The position numbers and the translations under genes are program-made. Of a stretch of 64,000 bases of DNA, positions 1 through 14,364 are shown in pieces. Positions within the stretch are counted from its first letter, which is position 1. The number at the start of each line of letters is the position of its first letter. Source of the stretch: an uncultured Candidatus Rokubacteria bacterium (lineage in GTDB: Bacteria; Methylomirabilota; Methylomirabilia; Rokubacteriales; DASRDR01); the NCBI GenBank assembly GCA_963805625.1, contig CAWDVE010000024.1, positions 96,001-160,000 on the forward strand, given 5' to 3'. The notes beneath the pieces were generated by a model. That model saw only the letters and a program-made list of their open reading frames with translations, was not told where the DNA came from and did not search any database.

Positions 1-450
1 CGGTGGACGTGATGCCCACCAGGAAGCTCAGAAGTGCCAGCTGCTCCATGCATGCGCCCGATGGGTCACCCGCAAACGAGCCGCTCTCGTTGTAGGGATA
101 GATCGAGGCAATCTTCCTCGGGATGATGACATGGTCGCTTACGCTAATAATCGCGAAACCCAACTCCTCGCCCTTGTGTGCCAATATCGCGAGGCTGTGC
201 GGTGTCGCCATCGGTCCGCGCGTTGGTAGTCCAAAGCCAAACTCCATTGTCGTTCCTCCTCCTGCCACCGGCACAGCGGAACGCCCTCGACCGGGTACGA
301 TTTCGTCGTGGGTACGCGCAGGCTGGGTTGAGCATACGTGAAGACTTGGCATCCAACGAGGAAGGCGTCAAGTACCTCGATCGGGAAGGGAGGGAGCACG
401 GGAAGTCGCGTGCGCGCGTGCGGTCCGGCTTCTTCTGCAGACCGGCTCCC

Positions 451-710
451 AACGATAACGCGCTGACCGAGACGGTGATCGGGCTGTTCCGACCGAGGAG
501 ATCCACCGACGCGGAGCCTGGAAGGGCCTTGAGGACGTGGAGTTCGCGACGCTCGAGCGGGTCGCGTGGTACAACAAGGGCCGCCTGCTCACCCCGCTCG
601 GCTACGTGCCGCAGGCCGAGTTCGAGCAGGCCTATCATGACCGTCAGACGGCTCCGGCCGAGTTGGCGGTCCTCACGTAACGAGCTCTCCGGAGAACCCG
701 GGGCGGTTCG
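451..710 (+). mobile_element. IS3-family transposase C-terminal remnant with right terminal inverted repeat
   Basis: Across a frameshift it reads DNALTETVIGLF / EEIHRRGAWKGLEDVEFATLERVAWYNKGRLLTPLGYVPQAEFEQAY...TAA, the typical IS3 OrfB end. It is followed by CTCTCCGGAGAACCCGGGGCGGTTCG (685-710), resembling an IS3 right IR whose terminal CA is altered. Confidence 0.8.
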
Positions 711-880
711 AGACGCACTCTGTGAAGGTCCGATCGCCGGCCTGACGAGGTCGCCACATTTTGCGCAAAGGGCAGCGTCCCGATAGCTGTGGAAAAGAGG
801 AATGGCGTATCTTCTCGGAGGTTGGGATTGGAGTCCACCATCCATGGCCTTGGCCGGGGCGCACCGAGAGGAGATACGCC

Positions 881-1145
881 GATGCCGACCTTGCCACAGA
901 AGGCAACCGCGTACAACCTAGCAGCCGTGGACTGGGCCGCCGCTCTCAGGCCGACATGCTGGAGGTTGGTCCGGCGGGCCATTGAGCACGTGGTCGAATC
1001 GGAGCTGGCCGTGGCGCTGGGCCCTCGTTACGCACGACAGGAGACGCGCGTCGGCCACCGCCACGGGACGAAGACGCGCACGATCACGAGCCTAGTCGGC
1101 ACCGTCACGCTGACGGTGCCACGCGTCCGCTTGCAAACGCCATCA
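881..1145 (+). mobile_element. IS256-family transposase N-terminal fragment
   Basis: VRRAIEHVVESELAVALG..RYAR...RVGHRHG...RTITSLVGTVTLTVPRVR matches the IS256/Mutator N-terminus; similarity stops abruptly. Confidence 0.7.
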
Positions 1146-1170
1146 CCTCGGGCTCTTCGAGCAGCGCGGG

Positions 1171-1443
1171 GTGCCATCGTCCGACGAGCGCGTGGCGCGG
1201 ATGCATCACTCCCCGTGGAAGGTGGGGGAGCCCACGGACCTCGTACGCGCGCGGCAGCGGCTGATCGAGACCGGGGCGCTGGTGGGCTCGTCGAACCACG
1301 GGGTGAGCCTGTCGCTCTACGCGAAGGATCCCGACGGGCTCGAGTTCGAGGTCTTCTGGACGGTCCCGGATGGCAAGCCCGTCGGCACCAGACCGCTCCA
1401 TCTCGAGGCCGAGCTGGCCCGGCGCGGCATCACGGTGTCGTAG
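1171..1443 (+). pseudogene. VOC/glyoxalase-family C-terminal fragment
   Basis: GSSNHGVSLSLYAKDPDGLEFEVFW motif; the N-terminal half is replaced by the IS fragment. Confidence 0.6.
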
Positions 1444-1477: not shown

Positions 1478-2551
1478 ATGGATTCCGGCGAGACCGACGC
1501 AGATCGAGGGCGCCTCGGGGGTCTGCAGGATGCCTTCGACCAGGCGTGGCGCGCTGCCGAGGCACGTCGCGAGTCGCACTACGTCTTGCTCGGTCGGCCC
1601 GTGCGCATCCGCATCGCCGGCGGCGCCCTAGCGGCCCACATTCATGAGGCCTTCGCGCACCTGAGCGCGGGCGCAACCGTGGACGCGCCCCGCCTCACGG
1701 TCGACCTCTGGGACGTGCGGGAGACGGGCGTGCCCGTTCCCGACGACGGGGTGCGCTGCGTGGGCGAGCAGACCTGGGGGCCGGCCGAGGACCGCTTTGC
1801 CGCCACTCACGATCGGCGCGTCGTCGGCACCCACCTGCCCGGCAGCGGCGCGTGGCTCGACCGGCGCGCCGGGCACGCGATCGGCTGGTTCGCGGACGGC
1901 GATGGCCTCACGACGCACGAGCGGAGCAAGCCGCTCTACGCGCTGCTCGCTGTCTGGGCCAGCGATCGCGGCGTCCACGGCGTTCACGCCGCGCTGGTCG
2001 GCCGCGATGGGAGCGGGGTGCTGGTCCCGGGCGGTAGCGGTGCGGGGAAATCGACGGTCGCCCTCGCCTGCCTCTGCGCAGGGCAGACCTACTTCGGCGA
2101 CGACTGGATCGGACTCGCCCGCGTCGGCGACGTCTTCGAGGGCTACGGGTTCTATGGCGCCGCACTCCTGGAGGCACGCCACGCCACGCGTTTCCCGCTG
2201 CTCCAGCCCCACATTGTTCGCCCTCCGGGCCCAGGCGAGGGGAAGGCGCTCCTGCCGCTCGCGAGCGCGTTTCCCGAGCGGCTCGGACATTCGACGCGCG
2301 TGCGCGCGCTGGCCCTGCCACGCATCGTCGCGAGGTCGGGGACGCGGGTTGGCCCCGCCTCGCCGCGCGAGGCGCTGCTGACGCTCATGCCCAGCTCGGT
2401 CTTCATGATGCGGCCCCGCGGTGGACGCGCCGGAATCGAGCGCCTGGCCCAGCTCGCCCGCGAGCTCCCAGCGTACTGGCTCGAGATCGGCAGCGACCTG
2501 GACGACATCCCCCGAGGCGTCGACGAGATCCTGGTGCGCGCGACGACGTGA
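1478..2551 (+). CDS. HPr kinase-related P-loop kinase
   Basis: VHAALV, Walker A GGSGAGKST, and YFGDDW (DD motif of HprK-like kinases). Start chosen at ATG 1478. Confidence 0.8.
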   Translation: MDSGETDADRGRLGGLQDAFDQAWRAAEARRESHYVLLGRPVRIRIAGGALAAHIHEAFAHLSAGATVDAPRLTVDLWDVRETGVPVPDDGVRCVGEQTWGPAEDRFAATHDRRVVGTHLPGSGAWLDRRAGHAIGWFADGDGLTTHERSKPLYALLAVWASDRGVHGVHAALVGRDGSGVLVPGGSGAGKSTVALACLCAGQTYFGDDWIGLARVGDVFEGYGFYGAALLEARHATRFPLLQPHIVRPPGPGEGKALLPLASAFPERLGHSTRVRALALPRIVARSGTRVGPASPREALLTLMPSSVFMMRPRGGRAGIERLAQLARELPAYWLEIGSDLDDIPRGVDEILVRATT

Positions 2552-3708
2552 ACCGCCCTTGGCCCGACGGCCTGTGTCTCCTGCTACCGACCTCGGAGGA
2601 GACTGATCTCCTGCGCGCCTGCTTGTGGTCGGGGCCGGGGGGACGCGAGGCCTGGGAGCGGTGGCAAGGGCGTGTGGGCGGGGTGCGCCGGGGGCTCGGC
2701 GACGAAGCCGTGAAGCCGTTGCTCCCGCTGCTCTATCACGCCGTGCGCCGGAACGAGCTCGCGGTCGAGCCCCGCGTGCGCACCACCCTCGGCGCGGCGG
2801 TGCTCGCGGAGACGCTCCGGAGCGCGACCTACCAGCGGATCTGCGCGCGGGCCTGTGCGGCCGTCGAGGGGGCCTCCGTTCCGTTCCTCGTGCTCACGGG
2901 CGCGGCGCTGGGGGACACCGTCTATCCCGCAGGGGCGCTCCGGCACTCGCACGACGTCGACCTGCTCGTCGAGGCGCGCGACCTGGACCGCGCCACCGAG
3001 GCCCTGCGGCGTGGCGGCTTCACGCTGGTTCCCGGCCGGTGCGCGGACCCCGAGCAACGGGAGCTGCGCGACGAGTCCGGCCTCCCGATCCAGCTTCACT
3101 CCCGCCTGTTTCCCGTGCGCTACTACGCCATTGCCCTGGACGGCATCCGGGCCCGGGCCCAGGTCTCTGCGATCGCGGGCCGGCGCGTGCCCACGCTTTC
3201 CGCGGCCGACCACCTCGTGCACGTCTGCGGGCTGGCTGCCTGCGCGGGCCGCGGTCGGTCGCTGAAGTGGGTGTTCGACGCCTGGTACCTCATCGCCCGG
3301 CACCCTGAGCTGGACGGCCAAGCCCTTCTCCGGATGGCGTCCGATGCCCGCGTCGTGCTGCCGCTGACCGTGCTCCTGGGCTACCTGGCCGATCAGCTCG
3401 AGGCCCGCCTGCCGAGCCAGCTGCTCGCCGGGCTGGCGGCCGCCGCCGCGAGGACCGATCGGACCGCGCGCGAAGTCGCCCTGTTCGGGGTGCGTGCCGG
3501 CGGCCGGGGGACGCTTCGCAACCTCTGGCGGGCCACGCGCAGCTGGCGCGACGGAGCGGATCTGGTCCGCTGGATGCTCGTGCCGACGCCCGCCAGCTTG
3601 CGATTCGGCTGGCGGTTCCATGATTCTCGGCCCGTGGCCGCCGGCTATGTCCTGCGGCCCCTGTCCTACCTTCTGCGCCGCCTCGGATCGTGGCGGGGCG
3701 CCGCCTAG
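2548..3708 (+). CDS. Nucleotidyltransferase family protein (NTP_transf_5-like)
   Basis: FLVLTGAALGDTVYPAGALRHSHDVDLLV matches the LKG...YP...R...DxDLL signature, with K replaced by T. GTGA overlap with the kinase gene. Confidence 0.8.
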   Translation: MNRPWPDGLCLLLPTSEETDLLRACLWSGPGGREAWERWQGRVGGVRRGLGDEAVKPLLPLLYHAVRRNELAVEPRVRTTLGAAVLAETLRSATYQRICARACAAVEGASVPFLVLTGAALGDTVYPAGALRHSHDVDLLVEARDLDRATEALRRGGFTLVPGRCADPEQRELRDESGLPIQLHSRLFPVRYYAIALDGIRARAQVSAIAGRRVPTLSAADHLVHVCGLAACAGRGRSLKWVFDAWYLIARHPELDGQALLRMASDARVVLPLTVLLGYLADQLEARLPSQLLAGLAAAAARTDRTAREVALFGVRAGGRGTLRNLWRATRSWRDGADLVRWMLVPTPASLRFGWRFHDSRPVAAGYVLRPLSYLLRRLGSWRGAA

Positions 3709-3838
3709 GCGCGGGCCATGGTGGCCGTCGCCGGCGGCTGACGGCGGCCGGGGACCCCGCCTGCCGGTGCCGTCCAAGGTGAATGAGGGAGGCTACGAAT
3801 CGCAGTATCATGCAGGTCGACGTGCACAGGAGGTGGCG

Positions 3839-4291
3839 ATGCTGACGAACGACACTCGCCTGCGTCCGAACGACGCCGAGGTCGCGGCCGAGGTGATGGA
3901 TGGTGAGGCGATTCTGATCAACCTCGCCACCGGCGCGTACTACTCCATGGACAAGGCCGGCGGGCTGGTCTGGCAGTCGATCCAGCAGCACTGCTCGCTG
4001 GAGGAGATCGCCCAGCGGCTCACCGGCAGCTACGCCGTCTCGATCGAGCAGGCGCGCGCCGACGTGACCCGGCTCGGGTCCGAGCTGCTGGAAGCGCACC
4101 TCGTCACGGTCTCGACGGATGCCGCCCCCAGCGGTGATGCGTACGTCCCCCCGCCCGAGCGGCTGCTCTACGAGTCACCCACGGTGTCGGCTTACAGCGA
4201 CCTGCGCAACCTGCTCGCCCTCGATCCCCCGATGCCGTCCCTGGAGACCCTCCAGATCGAGGATCCGAGACGGGGGCCGTCCACCGCATGA
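3839..4291 (+). CDS. PqqD/RRE-family protein with C-terminal YxxP leader-like extension
   Basis: AGGAGG RBS; RRE fold DGEAILINLATGAYYSMDKAGGLVW...IAQRLTGSYAVSIEQARADVTRLGSELLEAHLV; tail YESPTVSAYSDLRNLLALDPPMP...PSTA. Confidence 0.85.
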   Translation: MLTNDTRLRPNDAEVAAEVMDGEAILINLATGAYYSMDKAGGLVWQSIQQHCSLEEIAQRLTGSYAVSIEQARADVTRLGSELLEAHLVTVSTDAAPSGDAYVPPPERLLYESPTVSAYSDLRNLLALDPPMPSLETLQIEDPRRGPSTA

Positions 4292-4298
4292 TTGGCAC

Positions 4299-5045
4299 GT
4301 GACCGGCGCCCTGGTGAGCTGCGTCGTCCCCGTGTTTAACGGGGAGCGCTACCTGCGGGAAGCGCTCGACAGCATCCTGGCCCAGACCTATCGGCCGCTG
4401 GAGGTCGTCGTGGCGGACGACGGCTCGACCGACAGCACGGTGGAGATCGTGGCTGGCTACGCCGACGCCGTGCGCTACGTCCGACAGGACAACGCCGGTG
4501 CCCCGGCGGCCCGCAACCTCGGTCTCGATAACGGGCGAGGTGACTTCATCGCCTTCCTCGACGCCGACGACGTCTGGCACCCGGAGAAGCTGGCCCGGCA
4601 GATGGCGCGCTTCGACGCGCGCCCCGACCTCGATCTCTGCGTCACCCACCTGCAGGCGTTCTGGATCGCCGAGCTGAAGGAGGAGGCGGCGAGATTCCGC
4701 GATCACCCACTGTCGGGGCCGCTGCCCGGGTATTCCACGGTGACCCTGTTGGCGCGACGCGCGCTGTTCGAACGGGTCGGCCGCTTCAACGTCGCGCTGA
4801 GCGTCGGCGATCCCATGGAGTGGTTCCTTCGTGCCGCCCACGAGGGCGCGGTGATGGAGCTGCTGCCGGAAACCCTTGTGTACCGGCGCATGCACCAGCG
4901 GAACCTGTCGTGGGATGTCGACGAAACCCGGCGCATGACGACGGCGATGCAGGCCTCGGTTCTACGGGTGGTGAAGGAGTCGCTCGATCGCCGGCGCCGC
5001 GAGGGATCGGCGGTGCGCGCCTACGACATCCCGGGGCCTCGATGA
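4299..5045 (+). CDS. Glycosyltransferase family 2
   Basis: VSCVVPVFNGERYL, DDGSTD, ARNLG, FLDADD motifs; GTG start. Confidence 0.9.
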   Translation: MTGALVSCVVPVFNGERYLREALDSILAQTYRPLEVVVADDGSTDSTVEIVAGYADAVRYVRQDNAGAPAARNLGLDNGRGDFIAFLDADDVWHPEKLARQMARFDARPDLDLCVTHLQAFWIAELKEEAARFRDHPLSGPLPGYSTVTLLARRALFERVGRFNVALSVGDPMEWFLRAAHEGAVMELLPETLVYRRMHQRNLSWDVDETRRMTTAMQASVLRVVKESLDRRRREGSAVRAYDIPGPR

Positions 5046-5176
5046 GCCGGGCCCTGGTGAGCTGCGTCGTCCCCGTGTTCAACGGGGAGCGCTACCTGCG
5101 GGAAGCGCTCGACAGCATCCTGGCCCAGACGTATCGGCCGCTGGAGGTCGTCGTGGCGGACGACGGCTCGACCGAC
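4308..5176 (+). repeat. Near-identical ~125 bp direct repeat at the 5' ends of the two GT2 genes (4308-4433 and 5051-5176)
   Basis: GCCCTGGTGAGCTGCGTCGTCCCCGTGTT...GACGACGGCTCGACCGAC occurs twice, with only two synonymous mismatches seen. Confidence 0.9.
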
Positions 5177-5764
5177 GGCTCGGCGGCGGCGGTGGCCGCC
5201 TACGGTGACCGGGCGCGCTGGCTGAGCCAGCCCACGGCGGGGCCGGCCGCGACGCGCAACCTCGGCCTGCGGGCCGCCCGCGGGGAGTTCGTCGCGTTCC
5301 TCGACGCCGACGATCTCTGGCATCCGGAGAAGCTGTCGCGCCAGGTCGCGCGCTTTGCGGCGCTGCCGGAGCTCGGCGTCTCGGTGACCCATATTCAGAA
5401 CTTCTGGATCGCCGACCTGGTGGAGGAGGCCGCGCGGCTTCGCGACGATCCGCGCGCAGGCCCGCTTCCCGGATACGTCACGATGACGATGATGGTGCGC
5501 CGGACGCTGTTCGACTCGGTCGGGCCGTTCGATGAATCCCTGTGGCACACGGACGCCGCCGACTGGTTCGTGCGCGTCGCCGCCCAGGGCGTCGTGATAG
5601 AGATGCTGCCCGATGTTCTCGCCCACCATCGCATGCACCGCACCAACCTCAGCCGCCGGATGGGGCCTGGCTCGCGCCGGGAGTTCGTGGGCATGGTGAA
5701 GCGGTCGCTCGACTGGCGACGGCGCTTCGGTGAGCCGGCGCCTCCGTTCCTGGCCTTCGACTAG
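5042..5764 (+). CDS. Glycosyltransferase family 2 (paralogue of the preceding gene)
   Basis: Same GT2 motifs; ATGA overlap with the upstream stop. Confidence 0.9.
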   Translation: MSRALVSCVVPVFNGERYLREALDSILAQTYRPLEVVVADDGSTDGSAAAVAAYGDRARWLSQPTAGPAATRNLGLRAARGEFVAFLDADDLWHPEKLSRQVARFAALPELGVSVTHIQNFWIADLVEEAARLRDDPRAGPLPGYVTMTMMVRRTLFDSVGPFDESLWHTDAADWFVRVAAQGVVIEMLPDVLAHHRMHRTNLSRRMGPGSRREFVGMVKRSLDWRRRFGEPAPPFLAFD

Positions 5765-5787
5765 GGTGGCGCCGGGCGGGGGTCGAG

Positions 5788-6903
5788 GTGCGGGTCCTCG
5801 TGTGGCAGGAGCCCTTCGGCCCTGGGCGCGGCGGCGTGCACACGATGGCGGAAGCGCTGCTCCCGGCCCTGCGGGGACGCGGTCACGACCTCGCCGTCGT
5901 CTCCCGACAGGACGCGACCGACGGCCCGCAGCGGGGGATGTGGAAAGGGATTCCCGTCTACCGATTCCCGCTCTGGCAAGCCCTCGAGAGCGCTGATCCC
6001 GCAGCGATCATGCGATGGCGACGCGAGATCGAGCGGCTCGAGCGCGACTTCGCGCCGGAGCTGGTTCATCTCAACTCCTTTGGTCCGACGGCCCTCTATC
6101 ACCTGGAGGCGAGGCGGGCCGCCCCCCCGCCGCTCCTCGTCACCCTCCACTCGTCGAACGTCTTGGTCCCCGGCTCCGCGACCGTGCTGCGACGGACCCT
6201 GCGGGCCGCCAGCTGGACGACCGCATGCTCGCATGCGCTACTCGCGCAGGCCCGACGGGTGGCCCCGGAGATCGAGGCGCGGTCGTCCGTCATCCACAAC
6301 GGCGTCGATCCTCCGGTCGGCGCGCCCTCGCCGCTTCCGTTCGACGAGCCCCGGGTGCTCTGCCTGGGTCAGCTCGCCCCCCACAAGGGGTTCGACCTGG
6401 CCATCCGAGCCTGCGCGGTGGTCCGCGCCCGATTTCCACGGTTGCGGCTGATCGTCGCCGGGGAAGGTCCGGCGAGGCGCGACCTGGAGGCGCTGGTCGA
6501 GCGGGAAGGCCTCGGCGCCGCGGTCGACTTCGTCGGCCGCGTAGCGCACGCCGATGTGCCAGAGCTCCTCGACACCGTCACGCTGGTCGCGCTGCCGTCG
6601 CGGCGCGAGGCGTTCCCACTCGTCGCGCTCGAGGCCGCGGTAATGGGCCGCCCAGTCGTGGCCGCTCGCGTCGATGGGCTGCCCGAGGCCGTGGCCGACC
6701 GGGAGACTGGCCTGCTGGTGGACCCGGAGAGCCCGGTGGCGCTCGCCGCGGCGATCACGTTCCTCCTGACCCACCCCGACGCGGCCGTGGCCATGGGCGC
6801 GGCCGGGAGGCGCCGCGCCGCGCGGGAATTCGGGCTGGCGCGGCACGTGGACGCCTACGATAGGCTGTACCGGACGCTGCGGGAAGGGCCGGTGCCGGGA
6901 TGA
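5788..6903 (+). CDS. Glycosyltransferase family 4 (GT-B)
   Basis: GQLAPHKG and PSRREAFPLVALEAAVMGRPVVA (EX7E) motifs. Confidence 0.9.
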   Translation: MRVLVWQEPFGPGRGGVHTMAEALLPALRGRGHDLAVVSRQDATDGPQRGMWKGIPVYRFPLWQALESADPAAIMRWRREIERLERDFAPELVHLNSFGPTALYHLEARRAAPPPLLVTLHSSNVLVPGSATVLRRTLRAASWTTACSHALLAQARRVAPEIEARSSVIHNGVDPPVGAPSPLPFDEPRVLCLGQLAPHKGFDLAIRACAVVRARFPRLRLIVAGEGPARRDLEALVEREGLGAAVDFVGRVAHADVPELLDTVTLVALPSRREAFPLVALEAAVMGRPVVAARVDGLPEAVADRETGLLVDPESPVALAAAITFLLTHPDAAVAMGAAGRRRAAREFGLARHVDAYDRLYRTLREGPVPG

Positions 6904-7712
6904 AGACCATCGACAACCTCGAGATCCACCTCGTTCACAGTTGTAATCTGGCTTGCGAGGGCTGCTCGCACTATTCCAACCAGGGACACCGGGGGATGAT
7001 CTCGCTCGAGGAAGCGGACGCCTGGATGCGTCAGTGGAACCGGCGGGTGAGCCCGCGCACCTTTTCGCTGCTGGGGGGCGAGCCCACGATTCATCCGAAG
7101 CTCGTCGACTTCGTGTCCCTGAGCCGCCGGAACTGGCCCGAGGCGCGGCTCCAGCTGGTGACCAACGGCTTCCTGCTAGACCGGCATCCGGACCTGCCGG
7201 TCGTCCTCGGCAACGACCCGAATGCCTGCATCTCGCTCTCGATCCATCACGCCTCACCGCAGTATCGCGACCGGCTCCTGCCCGTCGTCCGGCTCCTCGT
7301 CGAGTGGACCCGCCGCCACGGTGTGCAGATCGACTTCCGGCCATCCCACGGAAGCTGGACTCGCCGGTACAAGGGGTTCGGGGCCTCGATGGAGCCCTTC
7401 GACGACGGCCGGCCGCGGGAGAGCTGGGAGCGCTGCCCGGCGAAGTACTGCAAGCAGCTGTTCCGGGGCGAGTTGTGGAAGTGCGCCCCGATCGCCTATC
7501 TGCCGATGCAGCACGCGAAGTACGGGCTCTCCGCAGCGTGGAAGCCCTATCTCAAGTACAAGTCGCTGGCGCCCGGCTGCACGGACGAGGAGCTCTCGGC
7601 GTTTCTTGCCCTAGAGGACGAGTCCTGCTGCCGGATGTGTCCGGCCGAGCCGGAGCGCTTCGAGATGCCGCTGCCCTTCCCGTCTCGCGCTTTCGTCCGC
7701 ACGCCCCGATAG
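6900..7712 (+). CDS. Radical SAM protein with Cys-rich C-terminus
   Basis: CNLACEGC (CxxxCxxC), GGEPT, TNG; C-terminal C..C..KC..CCRMC; ATGA overlap. Confidence 0.9.
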   Translation: MKTIDNLEIHLVHSCNLACEGCSHYSNQGHRGMISLEEADAWMRQWNRRVSPRTFSLLGGEPTIHPKLVDFVSLSRRNWPEARLQLVTNGFLLDRHPDLPVVLGNDPNACISLSIHHASPQYRDRLLPVVRLLVEWTRRHGVQIDFRPSHGSWTRRYKGFGASMEPFDDGRPRESWERCPAKYCKQLFRGELWKCAPIAYLPMQHAKYGLSAAWKPYLKYKSLAPGCTDEELSAFLALEDESCCRMCPAEPERFEMPLPFPSRAFVRTPR

Positions 7713-8020: not shown

Positions 8021-8203
8021 ATGAGCTGTCGAGTTACGCGAGCCCTGCCCCTCATCCTGCTCGGCACTACCGCCTGTGGCGATGCGACCATCACCGCCAC
8101 GTCACACTTCCCGAAGCGAGACGAGGACAACCGCGGCGCCACGGTTCGCGTCGTGGCTGAAGAGGCTCCGCAGAGGAGCGAGCCCGAGATCAGCCATCCA
8201 TGA
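8021..8203 (+). CDS. Possible small or truncated lipoprotein
   Basis: AAGGA upstream; hydrophobic stretch ending LLGTTAC-G; candidate promoter TTGACG-18-TAGCGT at 7966-7995. Confidence 0.25.
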   Translation: MSCRVTRALPLILLGTTACGDATITATSHFPKRDEDNRGATVRVVAEEAPQRSEPEISHP

Positions 8204-8279
8204 GAGTCGAGGCCCAAACCTGCCCTGCGCTGGCGCCGGCGCCGTGACTCGGTCGTCTGATTTCCTGGGGGCCTGTGGG

Positions 8280-9533
8280 GTGGCCCTGTGCCGTCTGGCG
8301 CATCCGCTGGTTCGCAAGATCCTGAAGAACCTCGCCCTGGTGGCCCTTGGCCTGGTTGTCGGGCTCCTGCTCGCCGAGCTCGCTCTTCGCGTGCTCGCCC
8401 GCTTCAACGCCCCGGTGAGGTACCTGGCGACGATTGGCGCCGCTCCTGAACGGCCGGTCTTCGCTAACCTCGAGGCCTACCTAGCCTCGCAACGCCCTCA
8501 GGTGGAGCCGCACCGTGACGTTCTCAACTTCTGGACCAACTCACTCGGACTGAACGACGTCGAATTCGTCGTGCCGAAGCCGCCGGGCCGCTTTCGAATC
8601 CTGGCGCTGGGCGACTCGTTCACGTACGGCTCCGTCCCCTACCCGGACGCTGTCATGACGCGGCTCGAGGAGGCCCTTCGGGCAAGCTGCCCACGGGTCA
8701 GCCTCGACCTGCTCAACTTCGGCATCGGCGGGGCGGGCGTCTGGGACTACAAGACACTCCTCGAACTGGCAACCGAAACATTCGACCCCGACCTCGTCCT
8801 CGTGAACTTCTACATGGGCAACGATGGTCCCGACCTATACGTCCGTCCGCGATCGTCCACGCGGCGGCGCCTGTCGATTCGGCGCTCCTATCTCGTCAGA
8901 TACGTGCGCAACGCGTTGGCGCTTGCGACGGGTCTCGAGCGGCAGCGTCGAGTTACAGGCCCAAGCCCACGCTCGCCTGGTTCGCCGGGCGCCCAGGGTG
9001 GCATGCTGGTGAATCCTGAGAGCTCCCTGCAACCGGACGATTCACGCCTGACGGGACCGAGCTTCACCGAGGAGAAGTTCCTTGAGATCATGAGTGTTGA
9101 GCTCCGCCGATTCTCGCGGCAGTTCGAGTCGGATGACCCGGAGCGTGCATGGCAGGCCACACTGACGATACTCGACCTCCTCCGGCACGAGATCACGGGA
9201 CGGGGCCATCGCCTAGTCATGACCCTCTACCCATCGGAACTCCAGGTCGACTCCAAGAAGGGATCCGAGCTCGTGGAGGAGCTTCGCCAGCAGTCGCGAT
9301 TGGCGAGCCTCTTGCCGGTACACATCGACCCGCAGATCCCCAACCGGATCTTGCTCGACCACTGCCGACGCGTCGGGATGGACTGCTACGATGTGACGCC
9401 CGACCTCATCGCCGCGAGCAGGGAGTCGGCCGAGCCGCTGTACAAGAAGCGCGACACGCATTGGACCGTTCGAGGCAACCGGGTGGTGGCCGAGGCTCAG
9501 GCGCGCTGGCTGCGCCGCATCGTGTGTCCCTAG
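8280..9533 (+). CDS. Membrane-anchored SGNH/GDSL hydrolase (AlgX/AlgJ-like acyltransferase/esterase)
   Basis: N-terminal TM helix, NSLG, ILALGDSFTYG (block I), GND, DTHW (DxH). Start codon uncertain. Confidence 0.8.
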   Translation: MALCRLAHPLVRKILKNLALVALGLVVGLLLAELALRVLARFNAPVRYLATIGAAPERPVFANLEAYLASQRPQVEPHRDVLNFWTNSLGLNDVEFVVPKPPGRFRILALGDSFTYGSVPYPDAVMTRLEEALRASCPRVSLDLLNFGIGGAGVWDYKTLLELATETFDPDLVLVNFYMGNDGPDLYVRPRSSTRRRLSIRRSYLVRYVRNALALATGLERQRRVTGPSPRSPGSPGAQGGMLVNPESSLQPDDSRLTGPSFTEEKFLEIMSVELRRFSRQFESDDPERAWQATLTILDLLRHEITGRGHRLVMTLYPSELQVDSKKGSELVEELRQQSRLASLLPVHIDPQIPNRILLDHCRRVGMDCYDVTPDLIAASRESAEPLYKKRDTHWTVRGNRVVAEAQARWLRRIVCP

Positions 9534-9663: not shown

Positions 9664-12600
9664 CTAGCGCCGGTGGACGAGCGACACCGCCGCCACCGAC
9701 CCCTCTCCGTGGCACACTTCACAGGTCTCGATGTTCCCCAACGTGTTGATCGCCGCGTGCGTCGCCGCGATCACCGAGTCGTGGCACGTGAGGCACGCAT
9801 CCGTAATCGGCAGGATGCTGCCCGTCACCGTCTCGGTCGACGGCGGTGTCACCTGGCTCAGCCGAGTCGGTAGGAGGTTCGACGGGAGCGGCAGCAGCTG
9901 GCTGCCATTCACGTGGCACGTCGCGCAGTCCCTTCGGTCCCCCGGGAAGCGGATCTCGCTGAAGTCGTGCGCCGTGTAGTTCTGCGGGGCCGATCCGAAG
10001 CCGTACACGATGTACGGCTTGTTCTCGAGTTCCTCTCCGGTGTGAACCTTGTGGAGCAGGTGCTTCAGGTTGATGGGCTCATTCGCGAGGTCTGGGCTCG
10101 GGGTCCCGGCCTGAGTCTGGCCATAGGTGTAGGCATTCACGCGGCGCGTGAAGTCGCTCACGTTCGGGTTGTGGCAAATGACGCAGTGGTTCGTCTGGTT
10201 GCGTGAGCCTCCGTGCACGGCGAAGCCCTGCGAGAAGACCCCGTGGCACTGCTGGCAGTTGCCGATCGCCACCACCGTGCGCCGAGGCACCACGGGCGAG
10301 CCGTCCACGCTGAAGTCCCGCACCGGGTTCTGAGCGAACTCGGTGACGGTGGTGGGGCCGCCGACCAGGTTGACGTTGGCGACCGCGCGGCGGGCTTCAA
10401 GCCCGACGCGCCAGGTTCCGGTGGCATCTGCCGGCAGCTTGTTCGCGCCCGTCGTCGTGAACGTGAAGGCGTCGACGCCGTCGAACACGGCACCCGTCAC
10501 GTTCTGACTGAGCATGGGCGCGGAACTACCGCCGAAGTCGGTTGTGGGCCCGCTGGCCCTGAGGCTGATCGTGCCGATCGGAGCGGAAAGGCTGGTGATC
10601 GGGCTGTTATCATCGCCGTTCTTGAGACGGAATTTGACCGTGATGCCGTTCCCGGGGGTCCCCGACGCGTCCAGCAGCTCGGCGACGAGCCCCCGCAGCT
10701 GCAGCGACTGCTGGGGAATGGTATGGGCCCCGGTCACCGAGACGGTCGCCTCGTTGGCCACCGTCCCGTCTCCGGGCGTGTGGCAGCCGGCGCAGGCCGC
10801 CTCGGGCGCGGCGCCGCCGCCGTGGGGCTTGCCGTTGCTCTTGAACCCGGCCGGAATTGTCCCGAGGTTCGACTGGGGCGGTGTCACGATGTCCGCCGTG
10901 CTCGGGTTCACGTCGTCGTGGCATCCGGTGCAGGCGGGTGTCGACGGCAGGGTTCGGAACGTGTGCGCGGTGGCCCCGCCGGTGTGGCACTTGGTGCAGT
11001 TCCGGACGTCCTGCGGGAAGCCCACCCCCGTCACCGCCGTCCCGGTGCAGGTGCCGGTCCCGCAGTCGGGGTCACCGGTGCAGGGCGCGCCCTCCTTCGG
11101 GCCCAAGACGCAGACGTTGATCTTCTCGGAGAACACCGTGTTCCCGACGGCGAACTTGGTGCCCACCGGGCCGGCCACGACCGACGGAAGCTCCTTGCCG
11201 CGGTGGATCTTATGGATCATCACCCTGAAGTTGAGGCTGCCCGCGTCGGGATCGACGAGCTGTTCCGTATGGCAGAGCATGCAGAGGCGCACTTCGCGCC
11301 GGCCGCCCCCGTGGACCGCCAGAGGGTTGTGGCACTCGTTGCACGCCGCCGTGGACACCGGCTCGCGCTGAAGGGTCAGCGCGCTCCTCCCCGGATTGCA
11401 GGCCACCCAGACCCCGCCGGTGAAGGCGGGGTTATAGGCGAAGAAGGAGCCGATGGGTCCGGGGACCTCAAGGCCCGTCGCGCCGTCGAAGGCGCGGACG
11501 TGGGGGCCGCCGCCGGGCCCGGCGCCCGTCACCACGTCCAGGATTCCGTCGCCGGTTAAGTCGCACGCCGCGACCTGTACGCCCCCGGTAAACGTCGGGT
11601 CGTAGGCCCACAGTTCGAGACCGGCCGCCGTCCCGAGGCCGGTGAAGCCCCGGACGTGAGGGCCGCCGCCGGGCCCGGCGCCGGTGATGATCCGGGCCTC
11701 CGTCGAGCCCCGGAGGCTCCCGCATGCGACGAACACCCCGCCGGCGAATGCGGGGGCGTAGGCCAGGAAGGTCGACAGCTGCTGCGCCGGATTCTGTCCG
11801 TTGAACACCGTGACGCGCGGCTCTCCGCCGGGCCCGGCGGCCGTCACGATGTCGGCCCGCCCGTCGTTGTTCACGTCGCACGCCGCGACCCGCACGCCGC
11901 CGGTGAAGGCGGCGTCGAAGGCGAAGAACGACGCGACTTCGGCGCCGGTCTTGCCGTCGAACGCGCGGACATGGGGGCCGCCGCCCGCGTCGGCGGCGGC
12001 GATCACGTCCGGCGTGCCGTCCCCGGTGACATCGCCGCACGCCACGAATACGCCCCCGGTAAAGGCCACATCGAAGGCCATGAACGACCCGATCGGCCCG
12101 GGCAGCACCGCCCCGGTCACTCCGTCAAAGGCCCTGACGTGGGGCCCCCCGCCCGGGCCGGCGCCGGAAACTACATCGACGACGCCGTCACCGGTCAGGT
12201 CGCACACGGCCACGCGCGCGCCGCCGAGGAAGGCAGGGCTATAGGCGAAGAAGTCGCCCGGCGTCCCGGGGAGCGGCAGACCGAGGACGCTGTTGAAGCC
12301 GCGGATGTGAGGCCCGCCCCACGACCCGGCACCGGTCGTCGGGCGCCCGTCGGGCACGAAATCGAAGATCGGGTTTGCAGCGAGGCGCCCCCCGTCAAAG
12401 AACCGGTCGACCTGCCCTCCGATCGTGTGAACCAGGGCCGCGGACCCGGGAAAGGGCGCCGGCAGCGTCCTGCCGAAGGTGTATCGGTAGGTGCCCGTGC
12501 CCTGATCCTCGAGCAGGAAGCTCCCGCCCGTATCGAAGGTCGGCTCTCCGGACGCGTTGAGGAGGTAGTTCATGTAGCGCGTGAACTGGACGGTGCTGGC

Positions 12601-12900
12601 GCCGTCCGTCTGCTCGTTGACCTCCAGCCGCGCGATGGCGAAGCGGACCCGGGCCAGGACGGGGTCAGAGGCGGACGAGACCGCACTTGCGGTGGGCGTG
12701 AGGGGGACGCCGGCCGTGTCGGTGAGGGTGAACCTCACGCTCGCGATCCCGGTGTCGCTCACCGAGGCGGCCAGGATGGCCACCTCGAGGCCGGGTCCGG
12801 GGAGCGGCACCGGCGGCGCGCTCGCGCTCTGGAGAAAGCCGAGGATCAGGACCAGAAGAACGGAGGGAGTGACCGTCTGAACGCCCTTCGGACGCCGCAT
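9664..12900 (-). CDS. OmcA/MtrC-family decaheme c-type cytochrome with an inserted six-repeat FG-GAP-like domain
   Basis: Ten CxxCH motifs in two groups of five (CNECH, CMLCH, CTKCH, CTGCH, CAGCH / CQQCH, CVICH, CATCH, CLTCH, CEVCH); HGGxR and MIHKIH/LLHKVH motifs typical of MtrC; signal peptide ending ASA. Confidence 0.92.
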   Translation of the reverse strand: MRRPKGVQTVTPSVLLVLILGFLQSASAPPVPLPGPGLEVAILAASVSDTGIASVRFTLTDTAGVPLTPTASAVSSASDPVLARVRFAIARLEVNEQTDGASTVQFTRYMNYLLNASGEPTFDTGGSFLLEDQGTGTYRYTFGRTLPAPFPGSAALVHTIGGQVDRFFDGGRLAANPIFDFVPDGRPTTGAGSWGGPHIRGFNSVLGLPLPGTPGDFFAYSPAFLGGARVAVCDLTGDGVVDVVSGAGPGGGPHVRAFDGVTGAVLPGPIGSFMAFDVAFTGGVFVACGDVTGDGTPDVIAAADAGGGPHVRAFDGKTGAEVASFFAFDAAFTGGVRVAACDVNNDGRADIVTAAGPGGEPRVTVFNGQNPAQQLSTFLAYAPAFAGGVFVACGSLRGSTEARIITGAGPGGGPHVRGFTGLGTAAGLELWAYDPTFTGGVQVAACDLTGDGILDVVTGAGPGGGPHVRAFDGATGLEVPGPIGSFFAYNPAFTGGVWVACNPGRSALTLQREPVSTAACNECHNPLAVHGGGRREVRLCMLCHTEQLVDPDAGSLNFRVMIHKIHRGKELPSVVAGPVGTKFAVGNTVFSEKINVCVLGPKEGAPCTGDPDCGTGTCTGTAVTGVGFPQDVRNCTKCHTGGATAHTFRTLPSTPACTGCHDDVNPSTADIVTPPQSNLGTIPAGFKSNGKPHGGGAAPEAACAGCHTPGDGTVANEATVSVTGAHTIPQQSLQLRGLVAELLDASGTPGNGITVKFRLKNGDDNSPITSLSAPIGTISLRASGPTTDFGGSSAPMLSQNVTGAVFDGVDAFTFTTTGANKLPADATGTWRVGLEARRAVANVNLVGGPTTVTEFAQNPVRDFSVDGSPVVPRRTVVAIGNCQQCHGVFSQGFAVHGGSRNQTNHCVICHNPNVSDFTRRVNAYTYGQTQAGTPSPDLANEPINLKHLLHKVHTGEELENKPYIVYGFGSAPQNYTAHDFSEIRFPGDRRDCATCHVNGSQLLPLPSNLLPTRLSQVTPPSTETVTGSILPITDACLTCHDSVIAATHAAINTLGNIETCEVCHGEGSVAAVSLVHRR
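11390..12335 (-). repeat. Six intragenic FG-GAP/beta-propeller-like repeats
   Basis: Repeated GxGGGPHVRxF...F(F)A(Y/F)xxxFxGG(V)xVAxC(D)xxxDG units. Confidence 0.85.
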
Positions 12901-13008
12901 ATGCACCTCCACGCGACCGGCGAAGAAGTCAGCCCCAGCGTTCCCGGCGAGCCATGCGAGCGGACCTCCCTGCCGGATGCATCGCGATCCCGCGGCGCAG
13001 GCCAGGTT

Positions 13009-13065
13009 AGTGTCTTCCAGACTCTCGTACTCTGTCAATGGTGCGAACTAATGATGCGAACTAAT
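13009..13065 (-). promoter_or_regulatory. Candidate sigma70 promoter with an adjacent 11-bp direct repeat, upstream of the cytochrome gene
   Basis: Minus-strand TTGACA (13038-13033), 18 nt spacer, GACACT; TGCGAACTAAT repeated at 13042-13052 and 13055-13065. Confidence 0.5.
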
Positions 13066-13566: not shown

Positions 13567-14364
13567 CTAGTGGCCCGCGCCCTTCGTCGGGAGGGCCTGC
13601 CGGTCAACGTCGCGCTCGAGGTCGGCAGCGGGTCCCCTCCGTAGGAAGACCTGGCGGAGGCCGAAGTAGGCGAAGGCGTCCTTGAGGTTGGAGGCGAGCC
13701 GCTTCACCGGGTGCATCGAGGGATCGGTCACGTACTCCAGCGTGAGGCTGACGCGCTCCTCGCCCACGCCAAGGGGCGTCACCGCGTGCCACAGCCGGTC
13801 GCCGTTGAACAGGATGAACGTGCCGGGGTGCGTCGCCAGCGCCAGTTCCACCGGCGCCCGCCCCGGGTCCTTCTTGTGGAGCTGGCAGACCAGGCGGCTG
13901 GACGAGCGCTCAAGCAGCCCCACCAGCACCGTGTAGCGGGCGCCGCGGTAGTAGGACGTGTCGAAGTGGAAGCCGATGTGGTCGCCCGGCTCCGTGTAGA
14001 AGTAGAGGGCGCAGGCGTGTGGGTCACAGGGTGGGCACGGCTGCAGGCGCGCGCCTGTCAGGGACTCCAGGAACGCGATGAAGGGGAGCGTACGGTAGAG
14101 CGCCAGGATCGTGGGCGCCCGCTCGACCAGGGTGTGGAAGCTGACGCTGCCGCCCTTCTTGTGGCGGGGGATATAGCTGCGGCTGATGGCCGGCCGCACC
14201 GACTCGATCTCGGCCACCATGCGTGCCACCACCGGGGCCGGCAGCCAGCGCTCGAGGTGGACAAACTCGCCCTGCTCCTGGTACGTGCGGCGGAGCGCGT
14301 CCACGTCCACGCGCGCAACGGCCTCGGCCACCGCCTCGGCCACCGACGTCGTCGCTTCGTTCAC
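13567..14364 (-). CDS. 2OG-Fe(II) oxygenase
   Basis: HIGFHFD (HxD), WHAVTP, distal R in ERVSL. Confidence 0.85.
   Translation of the reverse strand: MNEATTSVAEAVAEAVARVDVDALRRTYQEQGEFVHLERWLPAPVVARMVAEIESVRPAISRSYIPRHKKGGSVSFHTLVERAPTILALYRTLPFIAFLESLTGARLQPCPPCDPHACALYFYTEPGDHIGFHFDTSYYRGARYTVLVGLLERSSSRLVCQLHKKDPGRAPVELALATHPGTFILFNGDRLWHAVTPLGVGEERVSLTLEYVTDPSMHPVKRLASNLKDAFAYFGLRQVFLRRGPAADLERDVDRQALPTKGAGH

Follow-up and report, generated by a model that had tools for sequence, protein, structure and literature searches.

The window analysed here is a 64,000-nucleotide (nt) stretch from an uncultured Candidatus Rokubacteria bacterium (assembly GCA_963805625.1, contig CAWDVE010000024.1, positions 96,001 to 160,000 of the forward strand). 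It contains an operon of seven genes that includes a 150-residue protein in which a RiPP recognition element (RRE; RiPP, a peptide that is ribosomally synthesized and then modified post-translationally) is fused to a leader-like C-terminal tail. Comparison of related loci shows that the conserved unit is made of four families: the tail-fused RRE, a kinase of HprK-like type, an NTP_transf_5 nucleotidyltransferase-fold protein and a GT2 glycosyltransferase. The tail is a leader of the lasso type (YxxPxL), which AlphaFold2 modelling and covariation predict to be bound in cis to its own RRE. We tentatively favour a reading in which the tail would be a permanent acceptor or carrier, activated at the Asp of a Leu-Asp-Pro motif and glycosylated with the help of the neighbouring kinase, nucleotidyltransferase-fold protein and glycosyltransferases.

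Organization of the operon

The features of the operon, and the SGNH gene that follows it, are these:

1478..2551, + strand: HprK-like kinase, 357 amino acids (aa); Hpr_kinase_C match at E 2e-5, below all cut-offs; core gene.
2548..3708, + strand: NTP_transf_5 (PF14907) nucleotidyltransferase-fold protein, 386 aa; E 1e-32; core gene.
3828..3834, + strand: Shine-Dalgarno AGGAGGT, full consensus, inside the 130-nt gap 5' of the RRE gene; assigned from sequence alone.
3839-4291, + strand: PqqD/RRE gene, 150 aa; PqqD match at E 2e-14 over residues 23-89, then a tail of about 60 aa.
3839..4114, + strand: RRE (PqqD-like) domain, residues 1-92, by Pfam, structure and alignment.
4169..4237, + strand: fused leader-like tail, residues 111-133, consensus YxxPxLxxYxDMxDLLALDPPxP, with a variable disordered end to 4288.
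4223..4228, + strand: Asp129-Pro130, positions 19-20 from the leader Tyr; near-invariant; candidate modification site or phosphoserine mimic.
4299..5045, + strand: GT2 glycosyltransferase a, 248 aa; DXD motif intact; core family.
5042..5764, + strand: GT2 glycosyltransferase b, 240 aa; 60% identity to GT2a.
5788..6903, + strand: GT4 glycosyltransferase, 371 aa; frequent among relatives, not universal.
6900..7712, + strand: radical SAM protein, 270 aa, with a Cys-rich C-terminus; local accessory, outside the conserved unit.
8076-9533: open reading frame (ORF) of the SGNH gene, from the ORF list; begins at least 363 nt past the radical SAM stop codon.

The original prediction, made from the letters of the window, described seven co-oriented and mostly overlapping genes. 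Its gene labels are matched by Pfam and NCBIfam (HprK-like kinase, NTP_transf_5, PqqD, GT2, GT2, GT4 and radical SAM), and all seven genes lie on the + strand between 1478 and 7712, but just three of the six junctions overlap, by 4 nt each, and gaps of 130, 7 and 23 nt separate the others. As it had also stated, no cyclase, B2 peptidase or free precursor is present within the operon. The GC content at third codon positions, taken from the ORF list and sequence, is 0.87-0.90 in all seven genes. Among the six downstream gene starts compared, that of the RRE gene alone has a full match to the Shine-Dalgarno consensus. The operon is not an assembly artefact, because contigs of an independent soil metagenome (run X1) that are 97-99% alike cover all seven genes piecewise; no contig of this run bridges the GT4-radical SAM junction. 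Near-identical DNA is also present, again piecewise over the operon genes, in other soil and sediment metagenomes.

The tail and its own RRE

The RRE-tail protein has 456 homologues of similar length, and its profile recovers 205 clusters at E<=1e-30 in a 50%-identity library. The family architecture is an RRE, a variable linker, the consensus YxxPxLxxYxDMxDLLALDPPxP and a short variable end. A second tail subtype, which ends ...L(L/Q)(L/M)DPIH...GWP, is found on contig C17 of the same genome and on a plasmid of the cyanobacterium Crinalium. Counts made by regular expression partly presuppose Asp-Pro, and alignment columns were used in their place, taken from 377 distinct tail-filled domains out of 399. 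Position 1 is Tyr or Phe in 371 of the 377, and Pro4 (368), Asp11 (367), Met12 (359) and Pro20 (374) are similarly constant. At position 19, 371 domains have Asp and 4 have Glu, with one each of Asn and Arg, the Arg belonging to an inner truncated repeat; position 16 is Leu in 307, Phe in 32 and Ile in 32, and the columns past position 25 are variable. There is no conserved Ser or Thr in the tail, where the best column holds either residue in 126 of the 377; serine phosphorylation of the ordinary kind is thus not supported as a step common to the whole family. Ser36 of the RRE, a position that is Ser or Thr in 85%, was considered as an acceptor and rejected family-wide, since 23 of the 377 domains have Ile there and 18 have Ala.

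In the AlphaFold2 model, residues 1-120 have pLDDT confidence values of 92-98; a strand spans 117-119 and a helix 122-126, the chain is disordered beyond 130, and the best matches in both fold and sequence are lasso B1-leader complexes (PDB: PbaB1, TbiB1). RRE residue Asp75 aligns to Asp70 of LppB, described as hydrogen-bonding the leader Tyr (PMC13381572), and the corresponding pair is the top RRE-tail coupling: of 342 domains with a tail Tyr, 334 have Asp75, and of 41 with a tail Phe, 38 lack it. The list of mutual-information couplings is dominated by the split of tails into two subtypes, and a structural precedent exists for Asp75-Tyr111 only.

In proteins that contain two or three RRE units in tandem (P0258, P0158, P0169, P0143, P0145, P0146, P0149 and P0230), a YxxPxL-like strand follows every unit; inner repeats carry the strand only, and the Asp-Pro motif occurs once, in the last repeat. 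One of these, P0258, is fused to a kinase, and its complete tail lies internal to the fusion. At another locus (L023:5310-13780) three RRE-tail copies with identical tails are interleaved with GT2, GT4, dehydrogenase, epimerase and radical SAM genes. The Rokubacteria genome itself has a second RRE-tail cassette of the DPI subtype on contig C17 (L079:8763-16234), downstream of an hrcA-grpE-dnaJ operon, with genes for a GT2, a transglycosylase-domain protein, the RRE-tail protein, a kinase, two nucleotidyltransferases (one with a weak CHAP-like extension) and a GT2.

No description of the fused tail was found in the literature searched, a scope outside which subscription journals, figures and bioRxiv supplements fell. 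The family accounts for part of the long PF05402-only proteins that are flagged as unexplained in PMC12710340.

Conservation across genomes

A first genome scan with the single RRE-tail protein as query gave no match. An alignment-based scan, in which the best 80 of 122 relatives were kept, gave 78 loci, whose record titles place them in at least 13 phyla and whose neighbouring genes were mapped by blastp and clustering; it used LLALDPP patterns, and the DPI subtype is therefore under-sampled. Among the 40 loci with flanks of 6 kb or more to both sides, GT2 is present in 40, a nucleotidyltransferase of any kind in 38 and the kinase in 37 (36, plus one fused to GT2), followed by GT4 (26), an MsbA-like ABC exporter (12) and an Azf-like dehydrogenase (8). 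The nucleotidyltransferases are of two subfamilies, that of the window in 36 of these loci and a second, canonical one in 22, and gene order varies among the related loci. The proposal of a conserved, cyclase-independent system of kinase, nucleotidyltransferase and glycosyltransferases around an RRE with a fused leader-like tail is thus borne out by the neighbourhoods.

Membership of two genes named in the original prediction is not supported. The radical SAM protein of the window has no blastp match in any of the 78 loci and is found in one of 151 genomes of the class, its own, and other radical SAM families occur at five and two of the 78 loci; the SGNH gene has a single weak match among them. 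The cassette is patchy, because full-length RRE-tail matches are present in only eight of the 151 class genomes, with two each in six. No relative was found in viral contigs.

A recurring peptidase, priming phosphoglycosyl transferase or polymerase is absent both from the clustered neighbours and from those further neighbours that were scanned (148 out of the 195 lying within 5.5 kb), and these 148 gave no S24/S26 peptidase match at E<=1e-12. The scanned further neighbours are mostly unrelated housekeeping genes and scattered sugar-tailoring enzymes. The accessory sugar-tailoring genes include the Azf-like dehydrogenase, a lactonase, an AGE epimerase, a sulfotransferase and a deacetylase. Wzx is present at four of the 78 loci, ABC2 at five and a MraY/WecA-type gene at one (L041), and none of them is in the window operon. 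The MsbA-like exporter is also missing from the window operon, and an ABC and nucleotidyltransferase pair is present on contig C12 of the genome. Canonical NTP_transf_5 genes lie at L081:6450-9729 (C12, beside the ABC exporter) and L119:8848-10023 (C13), and are possible partners of the operon in trans.

Several cassette genes are fused to one another: three RREs with a kinase (P0258), GT2 with kinase (L010), nucleotidyltransferase with nucleotidyltransferase, and GT2 with GT2. The RRE-kinase and GT2-kinase fusions point to a single complex. A self-contained version of the cluster is carried by plasmid pCRI9333.04 of Crinalium PCC 9333 (L084:5896-17248), with RRE-tail, nucleotidyltransferase, kinase, FkbM methyltransferase and two GT2 genes together with a dehydrogenase, a lactonase, a TPR protein, a second nucleotidyltransferase and an ABC exporter, and without an annotated precursor or peptidase among its 25 features.

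The kinase and the nucleotidyltransferase-fold protein

The kinase retains the catalytic His170, the Walker-A Lys191 and Asp208-Asp209, a His-Lys-Asp-Asp quartet that is reported as essential in lasso kinases (PMC9266682). In a quick tree, from which the duplicated loci L108, L110, L114, L115, L128, L134 and L135 were left out, the kinases that accompany DPP and DPI/V tails fall on opposite sides of one branch (support 98), a split that indicates joint inheritance rather than co-evolution. The GT2 enzymes retain their DXD motif.

The nucleotidyltransferase has a Pol-beta-type fold, with MenT1 (Z 16.2, root-mean-square deviation (rmsd) 2.8, 177 residues aligned), ANT(2'') (Z 13.7, rmsd 3.9, 166 aligned) and LnuA as the nearest structures. 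It shares this fold both with antibiotic and toxin nucleotidyltransferases and with NDP-sugar-alcohol phosphate transferases of the FKRP/fukutin type (FKRP: Z 10.0, rmsd 3.5, 147 aligned), at 11-16% identity, and the fold shows no function; FKRP serves as an analogy only, for a logic of kinase, then phosphotransfer, then glycosyltransferase. The window subfamily has a His-x-His ahead of the DxD motif, and the window copy has both Asp136 and Asp138. The first Asp of the motif is lost in about 16 of 58 parsed members of this subfamily, and in the second subfamily 36 of 38 have the DxD intact. Nucleotidylation, which had been suggested as the reaction of this enzyme, is not what the only characterised relative points to: the addition of hexose to phosphoserine requires PsmN, with its DxD (PMC6993621).

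How the tail may be used

A carrier or primer role of the RRE protein in glycan assembly had been put forward as an alternative in the original prediction, and it is the reading that we tentatively favour. A plausible scenario is that the DMxxLLxLDP segment would be presented by the RRE to the kinase, in the manner of BsfB1 and LppB with their precursors, and that the kinase would phosphorylate the Asp carboxylate, possibly more than once. The NTP_transf_5 protein might then cap the phosphate or hand it on with a sugar, as may be compared with the requirement for PsmN on phosphoserine, and the GT2 and GT4 enzymes would extend the sugar, which variable accessory enzymes would tailor. No dedicated peptidase would cut the tail, and the product would be either the decorated protein or a released glycan, exported in some loci by the MsbA-like transporter. 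The simplest history would be one in which a precursor became fused to its own RRE, the peptidase was lost and Ser was replaced by Asp. What suggests an acceptor is the intact kinase, the lack of any other acceptor or priming transferase, and the presence of one motif per chain. Also in favour are the near-invariant Asp at the place of the phosphorylated Ser in precursors of linear polyphosphorylated peptides (LPP), the predicted binding of the tail in cis, the fusions of cassette genes, the division of the kinases by tail subtype, the lack of a recurring free precursor or peptidase, and the sugar-tailoring character of the accessory genes. The fuller version, in which RRE and leader form a reusable carrier for sugar chemistry (an Asp acyl phosphate, sugar loading by the nucleotidyltransferase-fold protein, and a GT2/GT4 glycan that is released or exported) and the whole is a RiPP-derived, protein-primed glycan pathway, is rather doubtful.

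Several observations weigh against an acceptor role for the tail. All characterised kinases of this kind act, to our knowledge, on a hydroxyl, and acyl phosphates are labile. A folded RRE protein that lacks a peptidase would not readily yield the exported product that is implied by the exporter of 12 of the 40 well-flanked loci. The loss of the first DxD Asp means that the nucleotidyltransferase may not be catalytic everywhere. One otherwise intact tail (P0181) has Asn at position 19, and the near-invariant 13-residue stretch of the tail resembles a docking surface as much as a substrate. The covariation of Tyr with Asp75 is mostly that of one clade, with one well-supported independent change (four in total) and a sign test that is not significant. 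LppK is reported to reject even Thr and Tyr (PMC13381572), and BsfK to accept Ser and Thr (PMC10368454). The register of the Asp with the phosphorylated Ser is a residue count: Ser3 of LPP, with the leader Tyr at Y(-16), is position 19 (PMC13381572), and Ser3 of BsfA is position 20 (PMC10368454), so that the match is off by one for Bsf.

Some of the same observations make it a serious possibility that the RRE-tail is never modified and acts as a scaffold or activator: a permanently loaded RRE in which the Asp mimics phosphoserine, and around which a complex of kinase, nucleotidyltransferase and glycosyltransferases acts on another acceptor such as a sugar, a glycan, a lipid or an unrelated protein. 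The whole DMxxLLxLDP stretch is near-invariant, as a docking site would be, and lacks Ser and Thr; the complete tail of P0258 is internal to its kinase fusion, and the fusions indicate one complex. The hydroxyl preference of known kinases and the released product that the exporters imply also fit, as do the accessory genes of glycan type, which at a few loci include Wzx, ABC2, sulfotransferase and amidotransferase genes, and BsfB1 is reported to stimulate its kinase (PMC10368454). However, a phosphoserine mimic at the position that the kinase targets would more plausibly block than activate, and no other acceptor gene recurs. Extra RRE repeats lose Asp-Pro while exactly one copy retains it, and the three identical full tails of L023 fit stoichiometric use.

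Alternatively, the tail could be a placeholder that a free precursor, encoded elsewhere, displaces in order to receive Ser phosphorylation and glycosylation as in LPP. The LPP set of RRE, HprK kinase, nucleotidyltransferase and ABC transporter does yield linear phosphopeptides without a cyclase (PMC13381572), and short genes are easily missed, but the searches make this unlikely. There is no recurring short ORF of the YxxP type among 131 motif candidates from related loci, the tail profile finds just two fused genes in this genome, a word search of low sensitivity gave no protein of 30-81 aa that shares three words with the tail, and the Crinalium cluster has no annotated precursor or peptidase. 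Three metagenome contigs (L133-L135) that carry a tail without an RRE were considered as free precursors; an opposite-strand ABC-like ORF abuts, and we read them as a disrupted gene.

Modification of the tail at another residue, either the second Tyr or a variable distal Ser or Thr, or its release as a glycopeptide by spontaneous Asp-Pro cleavage, appears very improbable. Asp-Pro bonds are labile, position 9 is Tyr in 326 of the 377 domains, and 183 of 200 distal tails contain some Ser or Thr; however, 43 domains have Phe and 7 have His at position 9, seven of the 200 have neither Ser nor Thr beyond the strand, and the tails share no conserved C-terminal residue (29 of 200 end in Ser).

Lasso machinery elsewhere in the genome

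A separate and complete lasso cluster is present on contig C16 of the same genome (L080:5483-10327, approximately 411.5-416.3 kb, - strand). It includes an RRE, the only B2 peptidase of the genome, a cyclase (NF033535, 626 bits against a cut-off of 525), an HprK-like kinase that is far from the RRE-tail cassette kinases in the tree, and two precursor-like ORFs with Thr(-2). These ORFs encode 198 and 177 aa, in which a YxxPxL leader runs not into a short core but into a Peptidase_S74 domain, an intramolecular chaperone, and an end that resembles a coiled coil. It is unusual for a lasso leader to be joined to a chaperone domain that cleaves itself; two carrier genomes of the same genus have similar cyclases.

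The cyclase and B2 surveys covered the genomes of 50 of the 78 loci, all drafts whose completeness is unstated. A lasso cyclase scores over the cut-off in two of the 50, on other contigs, and there is no B2 match in 25 of these drafts. At the loci themselves, Asn-synthetase-like genes are present at three of the 78 and a B2-like ORF at one (L064). There, a second, lasso-like kinase and the B2-like ORF lie directly downstream of the RRE-tail cassette (L064:6088-7777), the sole case in the 78 loci.

The original prediction had allowed that a lasso cyclase and precursor elsewhere might serve the operon; although cyclase, B2 and precursor-like ORFs do exist here and in two carriers of the same genus, that the operon is a tailoring annex of the C16 cluster is most improbable and is largely refuted by the distribution in carrier genomes, most of which lack them, and C16 has an RRE and a distant kinase of its own, whereas the tail has no Thr(-2) and has Leu, Phe or Ile at position 16.

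Relationship to known systems

The nearest described system is LPP (LppA/K/B/S/D/N) of the Bacillota (PMC13381572). As described there, LPP is likewise cyclase-less, with a discrete-type RRE that binds YxxP, an HprK-like kinase and an NTP transferase; it also has an MsbA-like exporter, present here in some loci, is embedded among glycosyltransferases, and has its target residue 19 positions from the leader Tyr, as predicted for the cassette. It differs in that its precursor is free, its acceptor is Ser and its leader peptidase is signal-peptidase-like (SpI-like), whereas the cassette has its leader fused to the RRE, Asp at position 19, no recurring peptidase and a dedicated GT2 family in its core. 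Of the features that mark an LPP cluster, the RRE, HprK-like kinase and NTP transferase without a cyclase are therefore found, and the SpI-like peptidase and a free precursor with Ser at +3 are not. No record title among the 78 genome loci names the Bacillota.

Paeninodin, pseudomycoidin (PsmK/PsmN, PMC6993621) and Bsf (PMC10368454) share with the cassette a His-Lys-Asp-Asp kinase (PMC9266682), a nucleotidyltransferase-fold partner and an RRE of the lasso B1 type. Unlike phosphorylated and phosphoglycosylated lasso clusters, the cassette has a tethered leader and no conserved C-terminal or ring Ser; a YxxPxL leader and a B1-type RRE are present, in one chain, but cyclase, B2, the Thr(-2) of lasso leaders (in rare cases Ile or Val) and a core with an Asp or Glu acceptor at 7-9 are absent. 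The likeness to the HPr-rel-A/HprK-related NCBIfam families (TIGR04352, TIGR04355, TIGR04353) and to the SynChlorMet cassette is remote and lies in the P-loop region of the kinase and the PqqD domain. The window kinase scores 32 (TIGR04352) and 25 bits against HprK-related families whose cut-offs are 200, which places it outside HPr-rel-A, and the window RRE is not among the matches listed for TIGR04353. A lipid-linked surface polysaccharide locus is not indicated either, with no priming phosphoglycosyl transferase, flippase or polymerase in the window operon; such proteins might act in trans. The cassette thus resembles LPP and pseudomycoidin tailoring in its working, and belongs to neither of these nor to HPr-rel-A.

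The biological roles of LPP and paeninodin and the function of NTP_transf_5 proteins are described as open questions for the field in PMC13381572, where LppN is reported as inactive heterologously and partners outside the core cluster are thought to be needed. Here, glycosyltransferases are core genes and the presumed substrate is tethered to the RRE, so that a small soluble protein and three or four enzymes provide a closed, testable system. The cassette occurs in at least 13 phyla, and twice in several genomes, and one cyanobacterial strain that carries it has a name. Were the Asp the site, HprK-type kinases would be performing a chemistry new to them, and peptide tailoring would have a path to the assembly of glycans on a carrier; were the protein a scaffold, nature would have provided a 'constitutively loaded' RRE.

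Context of the operon

The region upstream of the operon (window 144-1443) contains a Mutator/IS256-like piece (789-1469), a transposase-like remnant assigned by eye (about 144-845) and a fragment of a glyoxalase-like gene (90 aa, 1171-1443). This mobile-element debris and the gene fragment fit a cassette that was inserted as an island. A promoter scan gave no sites, and one terminator-like site was found against 2.3 expected by chance. Short contigs of a soil RNA run are 95-99% alike over the RRE, GT2 and radical SAM genes; they were not used, as contigs show neither transcription nor its level.

Among the other genes of the region, we note an 861-aa AAA-ATPase-like protein upstream of the window (L082:8176-10761) with about seven near-identical repeats of about 39 aa and C-terminal ankyrin-like repeats, both labels being given by eye. 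Downstream of the operon, on the - strand, window positions 9664-13038 encode a 1124-aa multiheme cytochrome of the OmcA/MtrC family (TIGR03507, over the cut-off) with an inserted block of FG-GAP repeats, and positions 13567-14364 encode a 2OG-Fe(II) oxygenase that has weak similarity, below cut-offs, to halogenases of the HalD/BesD type.

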